DNA of 64,000 nt from Patescibacteria group bacterium (lineage in GTDB: Bacteria > Patescibacteriota > Doudnabacteria > UBA920): positions 86-64,085 of the forward strand of contig WARV01000001.1 in the NCBI GenBank assembly GCA_013387205.1. Reading direction: 5' to 3'. The notes under the pieces were generated by a model. The model did no database searches. It saw only the letters and a program-made list of their open reading frames with translations, and was not told the DNA's origin. A program made the position numbers and the translations under genes. Shown piece after piece: positions 3,471 through 17,126 of this stretch. Each line of letters starts with the position of its first letter. Position 1 is the first letter of the stretch.

Positions 3471-3728
3471 ATGGAAAACAACATTGAGAAAAAAGAATGG
3501 CAAAAAGTGTTTTTAGAAGCAGGAACGAAAGAAGTCGGACTTGATTTGTCGATTATGATACCAGTAGTGTCCTCCCTCCTCACCGAAGCCCGTCAGCAAG
3601 TGATTACAGGGATAAGGGAGATGGTAACCGAACGGTTGCGGAACTTTGCCAATACTCCAATATTAGACCGGAAAAATGGTTACGAGGAACTAGCCGATTT
3701 CCTTAAAGCCTTAAACAAACTTAGCTAA
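3471..3728 (+). CDS. Hypothetical phage protein
   Basis: ORF track entry. Confidence 0.45.
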   Translation: MENNIEKKEWQKVFLEAGTKEVGLDLSIMIPVVSSLLTEARQQVITGIREMVTERLRNFANTPILDRKNGYEELADFLKALNKLS

Positions 3729-3881
3729 AAACAATTATGACTAATCACCAACTTTATTTATTAATATCAAACTTATTCTTAATAGCCTCTTTCATATCTA
3801 ACAAGAATGATGGAATATTACTAGTTATTAGTTTTATTTGGTTAATGTTATCAATATTATCTTTAATCTTTAAATAATAAT

Positions 3882-4142
3882 ATGAAAGAAATCGAACTAA
3901 ATCCAGACGGCACATTTCCACGGAAGTATGCAAAGGCACAATATGTGACTTATACAGCCACTACCAGTTTTAACCCTGACTGGAAACCCGAACCGAAAAA
4001 GCCAAAGACGTGGAAAGGGCGACGGAAAGAAGTTAAGGATTTCATTGTTTACTTGTGGATTATGTGGTGCTTGGTTAGTGGAAGTCTATTGTTACTCTGG
4101 CAAGTAATACGGGTAATAGTTTGGATAATTAAGAAATTTTAA
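3882..4142 (+). CDS. Hypothetical protein with C-terminal TM helix
   Basis: ORF track entry. C-terminal hydrophobic stretch LWIMWCLVSGSLLLLWQVIRVIVWII. Confidence 0.4.
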   Translation: MKEIELNPDGTFPRKYAKAQYVTYTATTSFNPDWKPEPKKPKTWKGRRKEVKDFIVYLWIMWCLVSGSLLLLWQVIRVIVWIIKKF

Positions 4143-4146
4143 CCCT

Positions 4147-4347
4147 ATGGAAATTAATCTTTGCTGTGACGACTGCGGTATTGAAGCCAACAGGCTGACA
4201 TGCCTTAAAAAATATGGACATGAGCCGCTTAAAAAGAAGTTTGACTGCTCGACCTACCACTTAGGGCAGTGCGACAAATGCAAGCAGGAAAAGTGGATTA
4301 CGGAGGTTAGGGATTTTTACCATCCTGATTTTGACCTTATAAGCTAA
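4147..4347 (+). CDS. Small Cys-rich (Zn-ribbon-like) protein
   Basis: Cys pairs CCDDCG...C...CDKCKQ. Confidence 0.4.
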   Translation: MEINLCCDDCGIEANRLTCLKKYGHEPLKKKFDCSTYHLGQCDKCKQEKWITEVRDFYHPDFDLIS

Positions 4348-4364
4348 AACTAAAATTAATTATA

Positions 4365-4676
4365 ATGAAAAATAACCAGGAAAATTCACCATACTATCAC
4401 AGTGAACTAAAAGGATGCAAGTTAATAAAGCGTAAGATTTGGCCAAGTAAATCCTCTTCTGCAACGGATAAATACCGTTGGCTGGATGGAAGATACTGCC
4501 TTACCCACAAAACGGTTTGTTGCAGATGTGGTTGGCAGTTTGGTTATCATAACGGAGATTCCAGTGCGTGGTTGAATAAGATGTTTGCTAATTCTAAAAG
4601 AGATTATACAGTAACCCCGGAAATGAGAATAAAGCTTTTAAATAACTTAAGTAAAACTCCTAGTTGGCAAAAATGA
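4365..4676 (+). CDS. Hypothetical Cys-rich protein
   Basis: ORF track entry. Contains CLTHKTVCCRCGWQFGYH. Confidence 0.4.
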   Translation: MKNNQENSPYYHSELKGCKLIKRKIWPSKSSSATDKYRWLDGRYCLTHKTVCCRCGWQFGYHNGDSSAWLNKMFANSKRDYTVTPEMRIKLLNNLSKTPSWQK

Positions 4677-4915
4677 AGATTTCATGTCCACATTGCAAAA
4701 GAATAGTTATGGAAACAGATGGAAAGGTCATGACCATACTTTTAAAACGTAACAAAGATTTTATTACCATACCATTCTCCAGTGGTCCATTTTACCATAG
4801 TTTATGCGGAAATTCCTTTGCAATGCCCTTGTCAGAAATCACAATTAGGAGTATAATCATAACAGACACAATCAAAGAGGCTGCTTGCGAAACATCAAGC
4901 GTAAACCAAAGATAA
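4664..4915 (+). CDS. Small Zn-ribbon-like protein (SCPHCKR...)
   Basis: ORF track entry. Start overlaps the upstream stop. Confidence 0.35.
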   Translation: MAKMKISCPHCKRIVMETDGKVMTILLKRNKDFITIPFSSGPFYHSLCGNSFAMPLSEITIRSIIITDTIKEAACETSSVNQR

Positions 4916-5155
4916 CCTCATAATCCGGCCAAAAGCCGCCAGAATGACTGGAAAAGTTTCTCTTACTTTGCTTAAGGGAAGTTTTTACAGTTTTTATTAT
5001 GATACTAAACCGACATAACTGCTCTAACCCCGCATTTTATGGTAAAGAACTAAGGTTTGTGATAGACGGGCAATTAATTAATGATCCAGAGCTAAGAATA
5101 GAAGTTCCGGCTGAATTTGATTTTATACAGGGCTTATTTCCTAAGGATTACAAAA

Positions 5156-5329
5156 ATGCCAAAGATTACTTTAAGATGCGCTAAATGCTTTAATGAGATA
5201 AAGGAAAAACCGGTAATCGTGAATGCAGTAAAAGCATTCCATCCCGATTGTTATTACAAGAACATTGATGAAGTTGGACTAACTCCGGCACAAGTAAAGA
5301 AACTAAACAAAAAATGTGCAACAAGGTAG
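5156..5329 (+). CDS. Small Zn-ribbon-like protein (LRCAKCFNEI...HPDCY)
   Basis: Internal ATG with an AGGA SD. The track ORF 5117..5329 overlaps the 4999..5184 ORF. Confidence 0.3.
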   Translation: MPKITLRCAKCFNEIKEKPVIVNAVKAFHPDCYYKNIDEVGLTPAQVKKLNKKCATR

Positions 5330-10249: not shown

Positions 10250-10807
10250 ATGGAAGAAGAAAACACACAAACCCCAGCGGCCAACCCTGGCGAAGAAGCT
10301 CCGACCAACGTTGCTTCACCAGAAGGCGCGCAGAATGGTGGTTCCAATCCAACTACCACCCCTGCCTTGAGTTTAGAGGAAATCAATTCTTTGACGGGTC
10401 ACAAGTATTCAAACCTTGATGACGCCAAAAAGGGATTGGTCAATCTGAAGTCTGCCGTTGGGAAAAAGGAAATACCAGTGGACAATCCTGCTTTGGTTAA
10501 GCAGGTCAAAACCCTGGAATTTTTCCTTGAGCATCCCGAATACAAGGATGCAAAATCTTTGATAACCAAATTCGGGGACGACCCGAACGAGGTGATTAAA
10601 GACCCGGTTTTCCAACAGGCTTATAAAGGCATACAGGCTGTGGTAGAAACTGAAAAACAGAAAACGACCATAACGTCCACCTCCCGTGTTGCCACTCCGC
10701 CGTCCGACGAAGCCCAAAAAGCTTTTAAGGCCGCGCAGGATTCAGGCCTCCCCGAAGATTGGGGAAGCGTGATTATGCAAAGATCGGGACTGGACATTAA
10801 GGAATAG
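10250..10807 (+). CDS. Acidic low-complexity protein, possibly scaffolding-like
   Basis: Position between portal and capsid. Acidic and Pro/Ala-rich. Inference only. Confidence 0.35.
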   Translation: MEEENTQTPAANPGEEAPTNVASPEGAQNGGSNPTTTPALSLEEINSLTGHKYSNLDDAKKGLVNLKSAVGKKEIPVDNPALVKQVKTLEFFLEHPEYKDAKSLITKFGDDPNEVIKDPVFQQAYKGIQAVVETEKQKTTITSTSRVATPPSDEAQKAFKAAQDSGLPEDWGSVIMQRSGLDIKE

Positions 10808-10890
10808 CAATGGCAATAGGTTTAGGTTAAATTAGACCTATTAAAATCGAGCCATATGCTGGAAAACCCTTAGAATCTTTAACCCTAACT

Positions 10891-11427
10891 ATGGAACAGT
10901 TTAAAGAATTGGGCAATCAGCAGGAAAGGCTTTCTCTTGTCTCTTATCTCTTTGGAATTATAGACGGCGAAGGTAGTTATCAGCTAGCTTCTGACATAAA
11001 TAAACATGGCCGTAGATATTTTTCCCCACAACTTAATATAAGCAACGCAAATCCAGGAATAATTGATTATTGCATAAAGGCTTTCAAACGTTTAGACGTA
11101 GCATATTATGTCTGGACGCCAAAAAAACACGGCAAAGAAAAATGCGTTTTATATCGATTGTGCGTAAAGGGAATAAAGAGAATGGCAAAATTTTTAGCGG
11201 TTGCGGCTTATTTCCCTCACGCTAAAATACGCCAAGCAAAGTTGTTAAAGAATTTTTGTGACTTGCGATTATCAATTGACCCAAAGAAAAAAGCCAGTGG
11301 TCACGAAATCACATACACAAATGCAGAAGTCGGATTCAAGAATGAACTTGGCCGACTAAACAAGGAATACAACACAAGAGGAAGAATCCTCAGAGACTAT
11401 ACGCTCGACTCTCTAAAAGAGAGATGA
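10891..11427 (+). CDS. LAGLIDADG-family homing endonuclease
   Basis: Motif YLFGIIDGEGSY (LAGLIDADG) with a single-motif size of 178 aa. Confidence 0.7.
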   Translation: MEQFKELGNQQERLSLVSYLFGIIDGEGSYQLASDINKHGRRYFSPQLNISNANPGIIDYCIKAFKRLDVAYYVWTPKKHGKEKCVLYRLCVKGIKRMAKFLAVAAYFPHAKIRQAKLLKNFCDLRLSIDPKKKASGHEITYTNAEVGFKNELGRLNKEYNTRGRILRDYTLDSLKER

Positions 11428-11503
11428 TATAGTCCGACCTTCCACGAAATTGGAAGATTAACAAAACGTAATTACCTACCAAGACCCTACCCGCCGGGAA
11501 GAT

Positions 11504-12346
11504 TTGATTGATGTGGTAACCAACGTGTCCGTCCAGGATACTCCACTCTTGTCAAACTTGCCGATGGGAACTGCCGCTAAGTCAACTTTGCACGAATATG
11601 CTACCGACAGCTTCGCCGATTATACCGATTCAGCCACCGCTGAAGGTTCCGGTGCTTCCGTTGTCGATTTGACTGCTCCGACACGCTCTAACAATGTAAA
11701 CCAAATTTTCAAGGATGACGTCAATGTCTCCAATACGGAAATTGCGGTTAATGGAGTGGTTGAGCCGTTCAAATACCAGCTCGGCAAAGTCATGGTGCAA
11801 CAGGCGAAAAATATTGAATTGGCTTTCATGGCCGGTTCAAGAAACTCCGGTAACTCCGGTGTCGCCCGCCGCCTCCAGGGTGTCATTAACGCAATTACCA
11901 CCAACGCTACTACCAGAGCTTCTGGAACTAGCTTGGGTGAAGTTGCTTTAAACGACATCTTGCAGATGATTTGGACTGGCACAGGTAAAGTCGCTACTAA
12001 CATTTATGTCGGTGCGACCTTGAAGAGAGATATCACCTCTCTGTCCACCACTGTTACCCGTTTCCAAGACGCTGCTTCAAAGCGTTTAACCAAACCGGTT
12101 TCAGTGTACGAATCAGATTTCGGTGTCCATGAAATCTACCTCCACAGGAACGTGCCGACTGGCGCGAACAACCTGACGTTGGTAGCTATCAACCCCGAAT
12201 TCCACCGCAAGTCCTACTTGCGCCCGACCCAGACCGTGCAGTTGCCGCCTGATGGCGATAGAACTCGCGCGATGATTGTTACCGAAGTCACCCTTGAACA
12301 CAAGGGAGAAAAGACTGGTGCAGTAGTCGGTGGATTCACCTCTTAA
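11504..12346 (+). CDS. Putative major capsid protein
   Basis: Position after the scaffold-like gene. Followed by a hairpin at 12367-12395. 280 aa. Assignment by synteny only. Confidence 0.45.
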   Translation: MIDVVTNVSVQDTPLLSNLPMGTAAKSTLHEYATDSFADYTDSATAEGSGASVVDLTAPTRSNNVNQIFKDDVNVSNTEIAVNGVVEPFKYQLGKVMVQQAKNIELAFMAGSRNSGNSGVARRLQGVINAITTNATTRASGTSLGEVALNDILQMIWTGTGKVATNIYVGATLKRDITSLSTTVTRFQDAASKRLTKPVSVYESDFGVHEIYLHRNVPTGANNLTLVAINPEFHRKSYLRPTQTVQLPPDGDRTRAMIVTEVTLEHKGEKTGAVVGGFTS

Positions 12347-12410: not shown

Positions 12411-12782
12411 ATGAAAGAACAAGTGATAGGGAAAGAGCATTGGAACGTTGATAACGGGGATTTTAAGGGATTATGGGCTATCAATCCGGAAATGGCTCAA
12501 GGTGCTGACATTTGGCAGAAGATTGATGAGATTGTGATTGCCTACTCAAAATTAAATCCTGGCGAAGTTTTCTTGACCATACTGGAGAATAAAGCAGAAT
12601 CCGCAAGGCTCATGCACGAAACAGGGAAAACCAAGGGCGGAACGATGAGGTACGGTGCAGCATGGCCTCTGGGATTGTGGGTAAAGATAAAGCAACTCGC
12701 GCCGGACTTGTTTTTAAACAAGAAAAACTTCCATAAACTCTTAAGGAAATATCCAGGATTTACTATCGCAAAAAAAATATGA
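12411..12782 (+). CDS. Hypothetical protein
   Basis: Internal ATG at 12411 after the capsid terminator hairpin. Track ORF 12330..12782. Confidence 0.4.
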   Translation: MKEQVIGKEHWNVDNGDFKGLWAINPEMAQGADIWQKIDEIVIAYSKLNPGEVFLTILENKAESARLMHETGKTKGGTMRYGAAWPLGLWVKIKQLAPDLFLNKKNFHKLLRKYPGFTIAKKI

Positions 12783-15109
12783 AAACACTCTCTCTTTGTT
12801 TAATAGTTACCGCTGAAGATTTTAAAAAAGCCCTACCTGCCATAGAACAAATTAAGCCATTTGTAAATGAAGTTTGCATTACGGTCACGGACAGGACGGA
12901 AGGGTACGAAGATGGTGATAAATTAAAATTTTCTTACTTCAAATGGATTAATGATTTTGCCGCCGCTAGAAATTATAATTTTTCCCAAAGTTCTTGTGAC
13001 TGGATATTGTGGCTTGACGCTGATGACACTTTGGCTAATCCCGAAAAACTAAAAGGGTTAGTCCAATATGCGGAAGATAATCGGGTAGAAGGATATTACT
13101 TTTTATACAAATACGATTTTGACGCAAGCGGAAAATGCATAAACGAACACTGGAAAGCGCAGCTTCTTAAAAACAACGGGCATTTTAAATGGAAAGGCGC
13201 GATACACGAAGACCCTATCCAGGAACGCCCTGCAAGATGGGCGAAAGCTTACGATTGTGTTCGTATTCACCACTCCGACCACAAAAGGGGGAAGGAATCA
13301 AGCGAGCGCAATATGCGGATTCTGCTAAAGGAAAGAGAACGCGACCCCAAAGAGCCGAGAACCCTATTTTATCTAGGACGTGGATATATTGAATTGGAAG
13401 AATACCAAAAAGCCATTGACTGTTTAACTGAATACTTAGCCTTATCGGGATGGGATGACGAAAGGTATGAGGCAAGGCTGTTGATTGGAAGCTGTTTCAT
13501 GAGGACAAAACAGCATGAAGAAGCCTTGGGTTGGTATAACTCGGCTATTTTGGAGAAGGAAGAGTATCCAGACGCCTATATCCAAAAGGGCATGGCCTAT
13601 TTAAAGCTTGAAAAATGGGGACAAGCGCTTTCAAATTTTAAAACTGCCTTGGGTATGAACATCCCGGACGCTTCCACTTATTTCAACCCCATGCTTTACA
13701 AACGTGACTTATTCCTTGGAATCGCTTTTGCGTATTTGCAGATTGCCGAACTCGACCAGGCTTTGCCAGCAGTGCTGCAAGCTGAAAAAGCTGACCCAAA
13801 ATACCAAGAAACTTTGGATTTAAAAAAGATAATAGTTGAATTGAAATTTAAACACGATACTTCTAACCATTACGCCCGGTTAGCAAAATATTTAAAAGAC
13901 AAGAACCAGGAAGACAAGATTTTACCCTTATTATCTTCTGCACCGAAAGAACTGTTAGACGACCCTATTCTTCTTTCCTTGAAGTTCGCTTACCAGAAAC
14001 AATACACTTGGCCGGAGAAGTCAATTGCCGTTTATTGCGGTCCAACGGCTGAAAGCTGGACACCGGATTCACAGAATAACGGAGGGATAGGCGGAAGCGA
14101 AACCGCAGTAATCGAACTGACGAACAGATTGGCGGAAGATGGCTGGAATATCACAGTTTATAACCAATGCGACGCCCCGCCGGAAGGAAAGAGATACAGC
14201 AAGGTTTTATATAAAAATTACTGGACGTTTAACGTAGATGATGAATTTGATGTTTTGTGGGTTTGGAGATTGCCAGAACTTTTTGACTACGACTTGAATG
14301 CCAGACTGAAAATCTTAGATTTACATGATACCATGTCACCGGCAGATTTTACGCCTGAACGGGTGGCGAAAATGGACAAGATTTTTGTTAAGACAAATTT
14401 TCACCGTTCACTATATCCGAAAATCGCTGATGACAAATTCGTAATTGTCGGAAACGGGATTGATTTGAAGAGGTTTGAAGGAAAAGCAGAAAAAGACCCG
14501 CACCGATTCATGTATTCTTCCACACCAAACAGGGGGCTTGATACTCTGTTAAAGATGTGGCCGAAGATTAAAGAAAAAATCCCCGAAGCGACCCTGCATG
14601 TTTACTACGGTTGGAACACCTTTTACAAACTGGAGAAAAATAACCCAGAACGGATGATGTGGATGAAAAAAGTGCAGGAAATGATGAAACAGGACGGGGT
14701 AGTAGATCACGGGCGAGTTGGACAAAAAGAACTTGCCCAGGATATGTTAAAAACTTCCTTTTGGCTCTACCCCACTGACTTTCCGGAAATTGACTGCATT
14801 ACGGCCAAGGAAATGCAGGCAGCGGGAGTATATCCCATAACTTCTGGTTACGCAGCATTAGAAGAAAGCCAGATAAGTGGCATGAAGGTCAGGGGCGACA
14901 CTTACGACCCTGAGTGGCAAAAAGAATACATCAAGGAAGTGGTTAGTTATAAGGATGCAGAAATTAACCACGAGCATATTAAAACATTAAGTAAACAATT
15001 TTCTTGGGACAATGTAGCCCAAGTATGGAAGGAGCAATTAAATGGCGAAAGTTACAATAAAGAACTTGGGCGAGATTCAGCAAGCACCGAAGGAGAAATT
15101 TCAAATTAA
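12779..15109 (+). CDS. Multidomain glycosyltransferase: N-terminal GT2 (GT-A, WLDADD DxD motif), central TPR repeats, C-terminal GT1/GT4-like (GT-B)
   Basis: N-terminal LIVTAED...WILWLDADDTL, TPR-like repeats around residues 200-330, and a C-terminal region resembling group-1 glycosyltransferases. Confidence 0.7.
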   Translation: MKTLSLCLIVTAEDFKKALPAIEQIKPFVNEVCITVTDRTEGYEDGDKLKFSYFKWINDFAAARNYNFSQSSCDWILWLDADDTLANPEKLKGLVQYAEDNRVEGYYFLYKYDFDASGKCINEHWKAQLLKNNGHFKWKGAIHEDPIQERPARWAKAYDCVRIHHSDHKRGKESSERNMRILLKERERDPKEPRTLFYLGRGYIELEEYQKAIDCLTEYLALSGWDDERYEARLLIGSCFMRTKQHEEALGWYNSAILEKEEYPDAYIQKGMAYLKLEKWGQALSNFKTALGMNIPDASTYFNPMLYKRDLFLGIAFAYLQIAELDQALPAVLQAEKADPKYQETLDLKKIIVELKFKHDTSNHYARLAKYLKDKNQEDKILPLLSSAPKELLDDPILLSLKFAYQKQYTWPEKSIAVYCGPTAESWTPDSQNNGGIGGSETAVIELTNRLAEDGWNITVYNQCDAPPEGKRYSKVLYKNYWTFNVDDEFDVLWVWRLPELFDYDLNARLKILDLHDTMSPADFTPERVAKMDKIFVKTNFHRSLYPKIADDKFVIVGNGIDLKRFEGKAEKDPHRFMYSSTPNRGLDTLLKMWPKIKEKIPEATLHVYYGWNTFYKLEKNNPERMMWMKKVQEMMKQDGVVDHGRVGQKELAQDMLKTSFWLYPTDFPEIDCITAKEMQAAGVYPITSGYAALEESQISGMKVRGDTYDPEWQKEYIKEVVSYKDAEINHEHIKTLSKQFSWDNVAQVWKEQLNGESYNKELGRDSASTEGEISN

Positions 15110-15174
15110 ATATCATAGCGGAATTACAACCTTAGAAGATGTGATCAACCAGCTAAACGAACATTTTAAGGAAA

Positions 15175-16059
15175 ATGCCTAAGCTAAAGATTTCTTTTTT
15201 GTGGGATGGAGTGCGACTGCATTACGGCCAGAGATTTAAAGACGGGCTGTTTATGGCTCTTCAACACCTTAAGGAAAAGCATGAAGTTCGGATGTTTGAA
15301 CCTGACGAGATTGATAAAATAAATGGCTTTCGACCTGACGTGTTGCTGTATTGGGGTGCGTTGTGTGAGAATTCTAAACCCCTAGTTGCCTCTTACCCTT
15401 ATAAAAAAGCGATTTGTTTTGCCGGTGGACCGATTGAGCCAGGTAATGTGGACGGATTTGACCTTTACTTTACCGAATCAGAACAAAATGAATGGGAGTT
15501 TAAGGCTCTGAATAAACCATACATGAGGGCGTTTGGGGTAAATGAGGAACTGTATAAACCTTTACCATTAGAGAAAAAATATGACGCAATTTTCTTCGGC
15601 ACTCATGCGCTTTGGAAAAGGAATGACTTGTTTGCTAAAGCGGTTAAAGACAAAGGCGTGTCGATTGGCATTTTCCAAGACCACGAAAAAGAATGTTACC
15701 AAATCCCGCAAGCCGAGGGTTGTGAAGTCCATGACGAATTACCGAGGGAAGAAGTCGTTACGTTCATCAATCAAAGTCATATTGCCTTAAATACTGCTAA
15801 TTTCTGGGATGGGGGACAAAGGATGACCCTTGAGGCTATGGCTTGCGACGTTCCGCCGATAGTGATGAGCGATTCACCAAAAAACATGGAATATGTGGAT
15901 GAATCAGGGGTGGGGTTAGTAGTTGAACCAAACATAGAAGCGATAAGGGAAGCCATCGGAAGATTAAAAGGAACACAGGCGGGAAGAAAATACATTTTAT
16001 CAAAATGGACATCTAAACATTACGCTCAAAATTTAGAAAAAGGGCTATTACAATTATGA
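15175..16059 (+). CDS. Glycosyltransferase group 1-like (GT-B C-terminal-domain-like) protein
   Basis: Weak GT1-like C-terminal signature (...TLEAMACDVPPIV...). Embedded between the other glycosylation genes. Confidence 0.4.
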   Translation: MPKLKISFLWDGVRLHYGQRFKDGLFMALQHLKEKHEVRMFEPDEIDKINGFRPDVLLYWGALCENSKPLVASYPYKKAICFAGGPIEPGNVDGFDLYFTESEQNEWEFKALNKPYMRAFGVNEELYKPLPLEKKYDAIFFGTHALWKRNDLFAKAVKDKGVSIGIFQDHEKECYQIPQAEGCEVHDELPREEVVTFINQSHIALNTANFWDGGQRMTLEAMACDVPPIVMSDSPKNMEYVDESGVGLVVEPNIEAIREAIGRLKGTQAGRKYILSKWTSKHYAQNLEKGLLQL

Positions 16060-17126
16060 TTCCTATTTCCAAACCATCAGCCGACGACCAGACCAAACAA
16101 GATTTATTGGAAGTTTTAGATTCGGGCTGGTGGGGCAAGGGGCCAAAAGTTGAAGAATTTGAAAAAAAGTTTGCCGAATATGTTGGACAGCAATATGCCG
16201 TTGCTGTTAACTCCGCCACTTCTGCCCTGGATTTATGTTTAAAAGCTGCTGATATTTCCGGCGGCGAACTTTACACCACTCCATTGACTTTTGTTTCTGA
16301 CGCCATTGTGGGGGAGTGGAATAACATGACCGTGACGTTTGGAGATATCGACCCGGAAACACTCTGTTTAGACCCTAAAAGTTTTTATCCATCTAAAAAC
16401 ACTAAGGCGGTAATTGCAGTGGATTCTCATGGAAGGTTGGCTGACATTGATGGTTTTAGGAAAAAGTTTAACGGGTTGATTATTGAAGACGCCGCCCATG
16501 CCATGTACACCCCAGGAGCAGGAAAAGGTGATATGACCGTTTGGTCTTTCCAGGCAGTAAAGACTTTGCCTTGCGGTGACGGCGGCATGATTACCACTAA
16601 CAATAAGAAATATTACGACAAGTTAAAATCCTTAACTTGGTTAGGAATTGAAAAGCCAACATTCTCCCGTGTTTCAGACAAAGGCTACCAATGGGATTAC
16701 GATATTTTCCAATCAGGCATAAAAGCCTATATGAATGATTTAACGGCGGTAATTGGCCTTGGACAACTTAGAAGACTTGATGAAATGAACGCCTGGCGCA
16801 GGGGCATACAAGACCAATATAACGAAGCGTTTAAAAACCATCCACATATCAAGATTCCTGCTTATTCCCATACAGTTCAATATTATACGCCAAGATTTAA
16901 AGACCGTGACGAGCTATGCCAATACTTAGCTAGTAAAGGGATATGCAGCTCTGTCCATTTTAAACCTTTAACAGAGATGGATTACTGGCGCAAGCATTCC
17001 CGATCTGCTCCCATTCCTAATGTCTATCGAATTTGGCCTGAATTATTATCCCTGCCTGTGTATTACGGTTTAACTGGAGATGAAGTTAATCACATTATTA
17101 AAACAGTTCTTGATTTCTATGGCTAA
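16056..17126 (+). CDS. DegT/DnrJ/EryC1/StrS-family PLP-dependent sugar aminotransferase
   Basis: LDSGWWGKGPKVEEFEKKFAEYVG, IIEDAAHA, SFQAVKTL (PLP Lys) and GDGGMITTN. 4-nt overlap with the upstream gene. Confidence 0.85.
   Translation: MIPISKPSADDQTKQDLLEVLDSGWWGKGPKVEEFEKKFAEYVGQQYAVAVNSATSALDLCLKAADISGGELYTTPLTFVSDAIVGEWNNMTVTFGDIDPETLCLDPKSFYPSKNTKAVIAVDSHGRLADIDGFRKKFNGLIIEDAAHAMYTPGAGKGDMTVWSFQAVKTLPCGDGGMITTNNKKYYDKLKSLTWLGIEKPTFSRVSDKGYQWDYDIFQSGIKAYMNDLTAVIGLGQLRRLDEMNAWRRGIQDQYNEAFKNHPHIKIPAYSHTVQYYTPRFKDRDELCQYLASKGICSSVHFKPLTEMDYWRKHSRSAPIPNVYRIWPELLSLPVYYGLTGDEVNHIIKTVLDFYG

Follow-up and report, generated by a model that had tools for sequence, protein, structure and literature searches.

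The gene for a LAGLIDADG homing endonuclease at positions 10891-11427 of the window, i.e. the 64,000-nucleotide (nt) stretch of contig WARV01000001.1 from a Patescibacteria group bacterium, very probably sits inside a 646-nt group I intron. The intron runs from 10823 to 11468 on the plus strand, as do all features of the window described below, ends in omega-G at 11468 and interrupts the gene of the major capsid protein (MCP) 13 nt after the beginning of its start codon. It was delimited by Rfam matches below the family cut-off, by covariation and by an RNAalifold consensus. The splice junction, the RNA structure with its covariation, the protein fold and the patchy distribution among relatives were all established computationally. 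An initial annotation had considered a free-standing endonuclease, an intron or a split capsid gene. The latter two coincide: Rfam, the junction and covariation point to an endonuclease gene within a group I intron, and to this intron within the MCP gene.

The capsid gene and its splice junction

Three open reading frames (ORFs) are present in the region. The first is an acidic, scaffold-like ORF of 185 amino acids (aa) at 10250-10807 (acidic N-terminus, stop codon 10805-10807). It is followed by the 178-aa endonuclease ORF at 10891-11427, which contains the motif YLFGIIDGEGSY, and by a capsid ORF which was called from a TTG start at 11504-12346 (280 aa; Pfam SU10_MCP, E=1.3e-64). The gaps in between are short and free of ORFs, 83 nt (10808-10890) and 76 nt (11428-11503). 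Up to this point the initial annotation was accurate. It had further described both flanks as non-coding. Actually, the two gaps carry the ribosome-binding site (RBS) of the capsid gene, the 13-nt exon 1, the ribozyme helices or strands P1, P3, P4, P5, P7' and P9, omega-G and the first 35 nt of exon 2.

Similarly, the 280-aa capsid ORF, which had been taken as the extent of the gene, is an artefact of ORF calling. The capsid reading frame is open upstream as far as 11462. The SU10_MCP match (PF17236) spans positions 7-290 of the 292 profile positions and is a full-length match to the family; because it begins at profile position 7, about six N-terminal residues are absent from the 280-aa ORF. 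A seven-codon mini-ORF, AAGGA-N6-ATG GCA ATA GGT TTA GGT TAA, has its ATG 2 nt past the stop codon of the acidic ORF. By inspection, the Shine-Dalgarno-like AAGGA (10799-10803) is located 6 nt before ATG 10810 and presumably constitutes the RBS of the capsid gene.

Exon 1 (ATGGCAATAGGTT, 13 nt, 10810-10822) was assigned from uninterrupted homologues and related loci. It encodes M A I G and the first base of a Leu codon. Exon 2 (11469-12346) was assigned from Pfam and from homologues of 296 aa at 100% query coverage. When 10822 is joined to 11469, the reading frame is maintained and a protein of 296 aa beginning with MAIGLITYQDPTRREDLIDVV results. The predicted ligated message reads AUGGCAAUAGGUU / UAAUUACC... 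and translates into MAIGLITYQD..., with a predicted capsid N-terminus of (M)AIGLITYQDPTR; the context of the junction in the predicted ligated exons is ...ATGGCAATAGGTT / TAATTACCTACC.... With the spliced protein as query, 460 homologues were retrieved at E<=1e-20. Those without an interruption that match best have 296 aa and are 64-68% identical at 100% coverage, and about 100 of the 120 MCP homologues listed start with MAIGLITYQD or a near variant. In the intron-less locus L017 the DNA across the predicted insertion point is ATGGCTATAGGTT / TAATTACCTACC, almost identical to the ligated exons of the window; the uninterrupted sequence across the site is ATGGCTATAGGTTTAATTACCTACC. The predicted spliced product is a 296-aa SU10-type MCP.

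The public record (NCBI, 67,807 bp) gives a different picture. There, the MCP is called as a 260-aa fragment, P0001 (11564-12346), from an internal Met (MGTAAK), the endonuclease is a separate unnamed protein and the intron carries no annotation. This agrees with an endonuclease that stands free, like the seg/mob genes, between a scaffold gene and a capsid gene starting at TTG 11504 or at the internal Met of the public record. Naive ORF calling likewise yields three separate ORFs, and the Rfam matches are all below the gathering score. Yet such an arrangement would deprive the MCP of 16-36 N-terminal residues, which hardly vary among about 100 of the 120 homologues listed. It also leaves unexplained that a mini-ORF with ATGGCAATAGGTT encodes exactly the missing MAIG(L), that the capsid frame is open to 11462 and that covarying ribozyme helices and an identical arrangement are encountered in 12 further loci (see below). 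A free-standing gene was rejected on these grounds; we consider it very improbable. The initial annotation had regarded separate ORFs without an insert in related phages as evidence against an intron. This test was mis-specified; relatives do have such ORFs and the intron reading holds regardless.

The acidic ORF and the 280-aa ORF had also been proposed to be two exons of one head gene. Both flank the insert, and scaffold-capsid fusions exist in some phages. The split capsid gene was borne out, the acidic ORF as an exon was not. The latter has a stop codon of its own, after which RBS and ATG follow; P1 and the 5' splice site follow the 13-nt exon, not the end of the acidic ORF; and the MCP homologues have 296 aa without a scaffold domain. 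In the intron-less locus L015 a homologue of the acidic ORF (29% identity, tblastn) terminates 8 nt before the uninterrupted MCP gene. At the intron-less locus of MCP P0039, gene order places a distinct 188-aa gene directly upstream of the MCP gene. Because intron-less relatives keep a separate scaffold-like gene immediately before the MCP ATG, the acidic ORF is such a gene and not an exon; the true exon 1 is 10810-10822. The probability that both ORFs are exons of one gene appears negligible. Pfam and PHROG searches of the acidic ORF returned zero matches.

Blastn of the region against GenBank phages returned zero matches as well. By tblastn the closest MCP among GenBank phage records is 35% identical, and no cultured relative was found there. 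Some database records name related MCPs 'capsid and scaffold protein'. The intron-less capsid relative of L015 is on a 4.3-kb contig and that of L017 on a 9.5-Mb chromosome, possibly in a prophage; both are from metagenome-assembled genomes, which are labelled Woesearchaeota and Acidobacteriota, respectively.

The ribozyme core and its covariation

In a permissive search the Rfam model RF00028 (Intron_gpI) matched twice on the plus strand. The stronger match, 11237-11456 (35.5 bits, E=9e-7), aligns the P7/P3'/P8/P7'/P9 segment at high posterior probability across UCAGAGACUAUACGCUCGAC...GAUAUAGUCC. The weaker one, 10857-10922 (16.4 bits), corresponds to P4/P5 at model positions 60-96. In an E-value scan of the whole window 11237-11456 was the sole RNA match (E=2.2e-5 there). 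The search against the group I model which the initial annotation had suggested for the two gaps thus found P4/P5 and the 3' core, both below the gathering score. Presumably, the score remains below the cut-off because the core is split by the 537-nt ORF. Relatives that have the same core sequences and no ORF, retrieved from locus L021 by a core-motif scan, scored 70.7, 61.4 and 47.4 bits; the first two exceed the gathering score of 50 bits.

The P1 hairpin (10815-10842, 9 bp) is formed by the exon end and the internal guide sequence. By inspection, AAUAGGUUU (10815-10823) pairs with AGACCUAUU (10834-10842), and the U-G wobble U10822/G10835 marks the 5' splice site. The loop of P1 contains an in-frame TAA (10828-10830), which stops translation of the unspliced RNA. 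Directly 5' of the guide G, AAUUA (10830-10834) is the P10 guide and pairs with the beginning of exon 2, UAAUU (11469-11473), as supported by pair counts. The 5' strand of P3, UCGAGC (10847-10852), pairs with 11403-11408 according to covariation and RNAalifold. The P4-P5 arm (10857-10922) was identified by Rfam, the alignment and RNAalifold. It consists of P4 (10857-62/10917-22), P5 (10868-70/10911-13), P5a (10876-82/10901-07) and a weak P5b (10884-85/10893-94); the ATG of the endonuclease (10891) falls in the P5a/P5b terminal loop.

The next helices are closed across the ORF. At 10923-10940 are the 5' strands of P6 (10923-25) and P6a (10930-40), which pair with 11387-89 and 11374-84, respectively. 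These 3' strands (11374-11389) lie within the codons for T-R-G-R-I-L. The 3' half of the catalytic core (11393-11435), assigned from Rfam posteriors and pair counts, comprises P7 (11393 and 11395-401 pairing with 11428-35, A11394 bulged), P3' (11403-08), P8 (11409-13/11419-23) and J8/7, which contains the stop codon TGA of the endonuclease (11425-27). The P9 hairpin with a GAAA-containing loop follows at 11439-11456 (Rfam, pair counts and RNAalifold). The mapped structure is without P2 and without P7.1/P7.2. It displays the features of a group I intron, i.e. P1 with a U-G pair, omega-G and P10, and the core helices P3-P9 including the P3/P7 pseudoknot.

The endonuclease has 11 homologues at 47-73% identity. 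Twelve further loci (L001-L003, L005, L007-L014) were assembled from the contigs of homologues and one locus of a metagenome scan; most were found by exact-protein look-ups, few by peptide scans of viral and metagenome contigs. All twelve share the same layout, a 13-nt exon 1 (14 nt in L005 and L013) and an intron of 645-697 nt. In-frame ligation results in M[AP]IGL[ILN][TS][YH] at each of them, and a 3'-terminal G at an in-frame 3' splice site is found in 13 of 13 loci when the window is included. For covariation, ORF-deleted versions of 12 distinct introns were aligned (alignment A2), the helices P1-P10 were written out and the pairs counted. Standard pairs occupied 92.8% of 825 base-pair cells compared to 32-44% when the 3' partners were slid by 1-3 columns. 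In 25 of 70 pairs both sides were changed in a compensatory manner. None of 500 shuffles attained the observed pairing, compensatory-cell count or covariation score. With no structure supplied, RNAalifold placed P1, P3, P4, P5, P5a, P5b, P8 and P9 at the same columns.

Individual helices contributed as follows. In P1 (columns 9/31 and 12/28), substitutions at wobble positions of the exon are matched by compensating ones in the guide sequence when the 12 loci are compared. Ten of the 12 retain the U-G pair that marks the 5' splice site; in L005 and L013 it is shifted by one position. P3 was 100% paired with two compensatory pairs, and compensatory changes were also seen in P4 and P5. All seven pairs of P5a covary in the RNAalifold table, and five of its six counted pairs were changed on both sides. 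P8 was 98% paired with three of five pairs compensatory, P9 100% with five of six. For P10 (helix 2, four pairs counted) 73.9% of the cells were paired. P6a has 11 perfect pairs in the window. In the ORF-less relatives from L021, GCAGGAAAG...AAUCCUCA are bridged by a short hairpin which Rfam aligns as P6/P6a. Because these introns close P6a with a short hairpin, pairing of P6a across the ORF is independently supported.

Several points weigh against an intron as described here. It is deduced from sequence and computation. The Rfam scan of the whole window at the gathering threshold reported nothing, i.e. at 35.5 versus 50 bits the intron is missed by default. P6 (GGA/UCC) is invariant across the family and matches the Rfam consensus. 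P7 is 96.9% paired, almost invariant and likewise matches the Rfam consensus; its support is the sequence match only, and as a pseudoknot it is beyond what RNAalifold can predict. P6a is the weakest helix with 81.8% paired over the family and three compensatory pairs, and P6/P6a were not recovered by RNAalifold, which chose a small local hairpin instead. An intron subgroup could not be assigned. Finally, the presumed target of the endonuclease, TAGGT-N6-ACCTA, has a weak two-fold symmetry (5 of 9 positions); therefore, the model of a homodimer on its target is tentative and no cleavage site is predicted. With these points taken into account we consider the group I intron in the MCP gene very probable.

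Other types of insertion were examined and rejected. For an intein, the frame of exon 1 meets TAA at 10828-30, the endonuclease ORF has a start and a stop of its own, and zero intein Pfam matches were obtained. A group II intron was rejected because the frame is broken by stop codons and a group I core is present. The source is an uncultured metagenomic contig, and this might suggest a decaying, non-functional intron in a dead capsid gene, for instance of a defective prophage or due to an assembly artefact. However, the U-G pair, omega-G, P7 with its bulged A and J8/7 are intact, so are the exons, which are in frame, and the same design with compensatory substitutions occurs in independent samples. 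A dead intron is hardly to be expected.

The endonuclease, its mobility and related loci

The 178-aa product carries a single LAGLIDADG motif, YLFGIIDGEGSY, at residues 19-30, and D25-G26-E27-G28-S29 are invariant in an alignment of 12 sequences. Pfam alone did not identify the family: LAGLIDADG_3 scored 15.4 bits versus a cut-off of 22.5, and neither LAGLIDADG_1 nor LAGLIDADG_3 was above threshold. Eight of 12 close homologues matched LAGLIDADG_3 weakly. A profile search retrieved 2023 relatives, 506 of them at E<=1e-10 and two-domain forms included; all ten of the more distant relatives scanned exceed the Pfam LAGLIDADG thresholds (26-65 bits). A profile search against the sequences of PDB chains had an insignificant match (E=0.45). 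The AlphaFold model calculated from the 12-sequence alignment (mean pLDDT 78.5, pTM 0.74) has the fold alpha-beta-beta-alpha-beta-beta-alpha (H16-27, E28-36, E42-52, H55-67, E73-75, E88-93, H95-105). In Foldseek the best 50 PDB matches were all LAGLIDADG enzymes (E down to 4.5e-6, probability 1.00), led by the single-motif homodimers I-Vdi141I and I-CreI, then I-CvuI, I-MsoI and I-TnaI. The assignment as a LAGLIDADG enzyme is secured because of the predicted fold and the relatives which exceed the Pfam thresholds. The single motif implies a dimer, and the model suggests that the enzyme probably is a homodimer like I-CreI. The window contains another homing endonuclease gene at 1716-2288, which codes for a protein with HNH_3 and NUMOD4; the statement in the initial annotation that the phage carries two families of such enzymes, HNH and LAGLIDADG, was confirmed.

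Both ends of the endonuclease ORF are part of the predicted ribozyme. The first ~50 nt double as L5/P5a'/P5'/P4'/P6/P6a, the last ~54 nt as P6a'/P6'/J6-7/P7/P3'/P8, and the body of the ORF is the loop of P6a. Because of this overlap with the core the protein ends GNQQERL and NTRGRILRDYTL are nearly invariant; it is the RNA that determines the conserved terminal peptides GNQQERL and GRILRDYTL. The same peptide motifs, as DNQQERL and ESSETIR, recur in the translation of an unrelated, Cys-rich HNH-like ORF of ~170 aa or more which runs through this RNA core in the loci L018, L020, L023 and L024 (IMG/VR). There, the P4'/P6...P7/P3' core sequences are only 47 nt apart and embedded in the ORF, apparently a related ribozyme core with a different endonuclease family.

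Possibly, the intron is real and the LAGLIDADG protein now mainly serves in splicing, as a maturase, or has become an inactive relic. Fungal mitochondria are known to have maturases of the LAGLIDADG type. The termini of the protein are locked to the sequence of the RNA core, so the ORF could persist partly for reasons of the RNA, and the symmetry of the target is weak. Against this, homologues with as little as 47% identity share the metal-binding DGEGS and about 50 other invariant positions, both the scattered occurrence of the intron on the MCP tree and the compositional contrast argue for ongoing mobility, and ORF-less relatives keep the same core, i.e. the ribozyme has no obvious need of the protein. 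A maturase or relic thus is improbable, and we favor an intron with an active homing endonuclease.

The GC content of the intron is 37.8%, that of the flanking genes 48.6 and 49.9%. Identity to the nearest intron-less MCP is 87% for P0112 (L012), 78% for P0061 (L003), 74% for P0034 (L008) and 67% for P0002 (window). The MCP of the window is 39-61% identical to the other full-length intron-bearing MCPs, and the intron-bearing MCPs are each closer to some intron-less MCP than to one another. Such a patchy distribution would fit repeated homing or repeated loss, and the intron apparently has spread horizontally among SU10-type capsid genes.

Following the standard group I pathway, the late transcript would fold into a P1-P9 ribozyme. 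A guanosine would attack after U10822, which is held in the U-G wobble by the internal guide sequence, P10 would align exon 2 and omega-G (G11468) would be released. The ligated exons, AUGGCAAUAGGUU / UAAUUACC..., would then encode the 296-aa capsid protein. In co-infecting relatives, the enzyme itself may cut capsid alleles that lack the intron, near ATGGCnATnGGTT^TAATTACC, and the intron may then be copied into the cut allele by repair, i.e. homing. P1 (10815-10823) is located inside the footprint of an initiating ribosome, and TAA 10828 ends translation of the unspliced RNA after six codons. Speculatively, splicing and initiation of translation could be mutually exclusive on this late gene, the one with the highest expression, such that the intron gates capsid synthesis, or the endonuclease could be a weapon directed at the start of the capsid genes of intron-less competitors, as in PhiPA3 (see below). 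We regard either role as rather unlikely; if one of them held, the intron would go beyond neutral parasitism.

Several related loci depart from the common layout. In L005 (343-1044) and L013 (472-1176) the 5' splice site is 14 nt from the ATG (GGCCT/A) instead of 13 nt (GGTT/TA). Both the U-G pair and the 3' splice site are displaced to match, a 1-nt slide of the insertion point within the intron family. In L002 (3597-4520) and L007 (2018-2137) exon 2 of the MCP gene is broken after 23 codons (..DIVSK* and ..DVVTK*); in L002 an HNH ORF (3713-4393) precedes the point near 4517 where the capsid frame resumes. Probably, a second intron is inserted here after about 22 codons of the gene; searched against Rfam at E<=0.01, the break in L002 and L007 gave zero matches. 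L004 (identical with L022; 2860-5272) is from a more distant phage with an endonuclease of 40% identity and the intron at the same 13-nt position, after ATGACATGGGGAT. A second Rfam group I match at 4195-4409 (36 bits) is located upstream of the remaining capsid ORF (4454-5272), therefore this capsid gene has two introns.

In L021, on the minus strand of a 98.8-kb IMG/VR contig (5255-6589), a capsid-like gene contains three group I introns which are ORF-less and belong to the same core family; a Cys-rich HNH-like ORF is at 3845-4570. Further introns are present in this gene and its reconstruction is partial. Within the 3' tail of the first intron is a 35-nt relic of an SU10-type exon 2 (TAATTACACAGAACCC..., reading LITQNPLIRREL). 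The usual 3' splice site of the family was rejected here since the product would have 17 aa. A better fit is obtained 35 nt further downstream, where a P10 of 6 bp can form. Hence, the first intron of L021 is apparently spliced at this new 3' site, and the relic suggests a past move to a new site along with flanking exon sequence. L019 (455-735 in match orientation, on the minus strand of the locus) has a core variant with a different upstream ORF and, ~250 nt downstream, a second group I-like core sequence (..GAAGGUGUAGAGAC).

Directly past the head genes of the window, at 12779-17126, is a block of sugar-modification genes. Among their products are a 776-aa GT2+TPR+GT4 protein, a GT1-family protein and a DegT/DnrJ/EryC1 aminotransferase (E=6.5e-74). 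The block is also conserved beside the capsid gene in the relatives L002, L003 and the P0039 locus and may be involved in glycan modification of the virion or the host surface. The TPR/glycosyltransferase gene that follows the capsid gene in L003 (2918-4573) has a Pfam Intein_splicing match; in its homologue in the window (12779-15109, 776 aa) no intein was seen.

Relation to known introns

The closest parallel is mycobacteriophage LittleE. Its capsid gene has an intron with the gene of a 177-aa I-CreI-like LAGLIDADG protein, gp14, and splicing was demonstrated (Pope et al. 2013, PMC3706429). In both phages a group I-type intron resides in the gene of the major capsid subunit, U is the last base of exon 1 and G that of the intron, the LAGLIDADG protein has ~177 aa and is related to I-CreI, and the intron was recognized via intron-less relatives. 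There are also differences. The LittleE endonuclease is encoded on the opposite strand, whereas the present one is read from the sense strand and shares sequence with the ribozyme core at either end. The intron type in LittleE is tentative, whereas here P1-P10 were mapped with covariation. In LittleE splicing was established by RT-PCR and N-terminal sequencing, whereas the present intron is deduced from its sequence. The capsid families and the hosts are unrelated.

The intron Cr.LSU in the chloroplast 23S rRNA of Chlamydomonas reinhardtii similarly carries a single-motif, homodimeric LAGLIDADG enzyme of ~160 aa within a group I intron. This is I-CreI (1bp7, 1n3f), one of the enzymes whose structures match the model best (TM about 0.53-0.62). 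Sequence identity is 18-20%, and the host gene is an rRNA gene as opposed to a protein-coding gene here. The target of I-CreI is a clear 22-bp pseudo-palindrome, whereas the presumed target in the capsid gene is weakly symmetric.

Self-splicing group I introns of phages are known from td, nrdB and nrdD of T4, the DNA polymerase gene of SPO1, orf142 of Twort and the capsid gene of the lactococcal phage Tuc2009 (PMC3706429; also PMC2988022). Like these, the present intron resides in an essential phage gene; the classical ones spread by means of the endonucleases which they encode. Twort has several introns in a single structural gene, a situation paralleled by L021. The classical phage introns mostly carry GIY-YIG or HNH genes and belong to subgroup IA2 with P7.1/P7.2. 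In contrast, the present intron has no P2 and no P7.1/P7.2, carries a LAGLIDADG gene and follows a first exon of 13 nt, which is unusually short. In PhiPA3 an intron-encoded endonuclease was shown experimentally to aid competition between phages (PMC11620839). There, as here, an intron-borne nuclease in an essential phage gene is able, or would be able, to cut the intron-less allele of a co-infecting relative; the enzyme family and the target gene differ, and a competitive role is a mere possibility in the present case. Metagenomic jumbo phages have abundant introns with HNH, GIY-YIG and LAGLIDADG genes (PMC12880540).

Group I introns with LAGLIDADG genes in phage capsid genes thus are already known, and the present one is an unannotated addition. 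It is distinctive, not unprecedented, in its 13-nt exon 1, in a sense-strand ORF which overlaps the core at both ends and in a well-sampled family with strong covariation. The principles of group I introns are unchanged by this case. Recognizing the intron restores a 296-aa MCP in place of the public 260 aa. It flags the same annotation problem in at least 13 metagenomic phage loci and in ORF-less and HNH-bearing relatives. Moreover, it provides a clean natural example of a homing endonuclease ORF with both ends welded to ribozyme helices, in which codons at opposite ends of the gene co-vary and preserve P6a.

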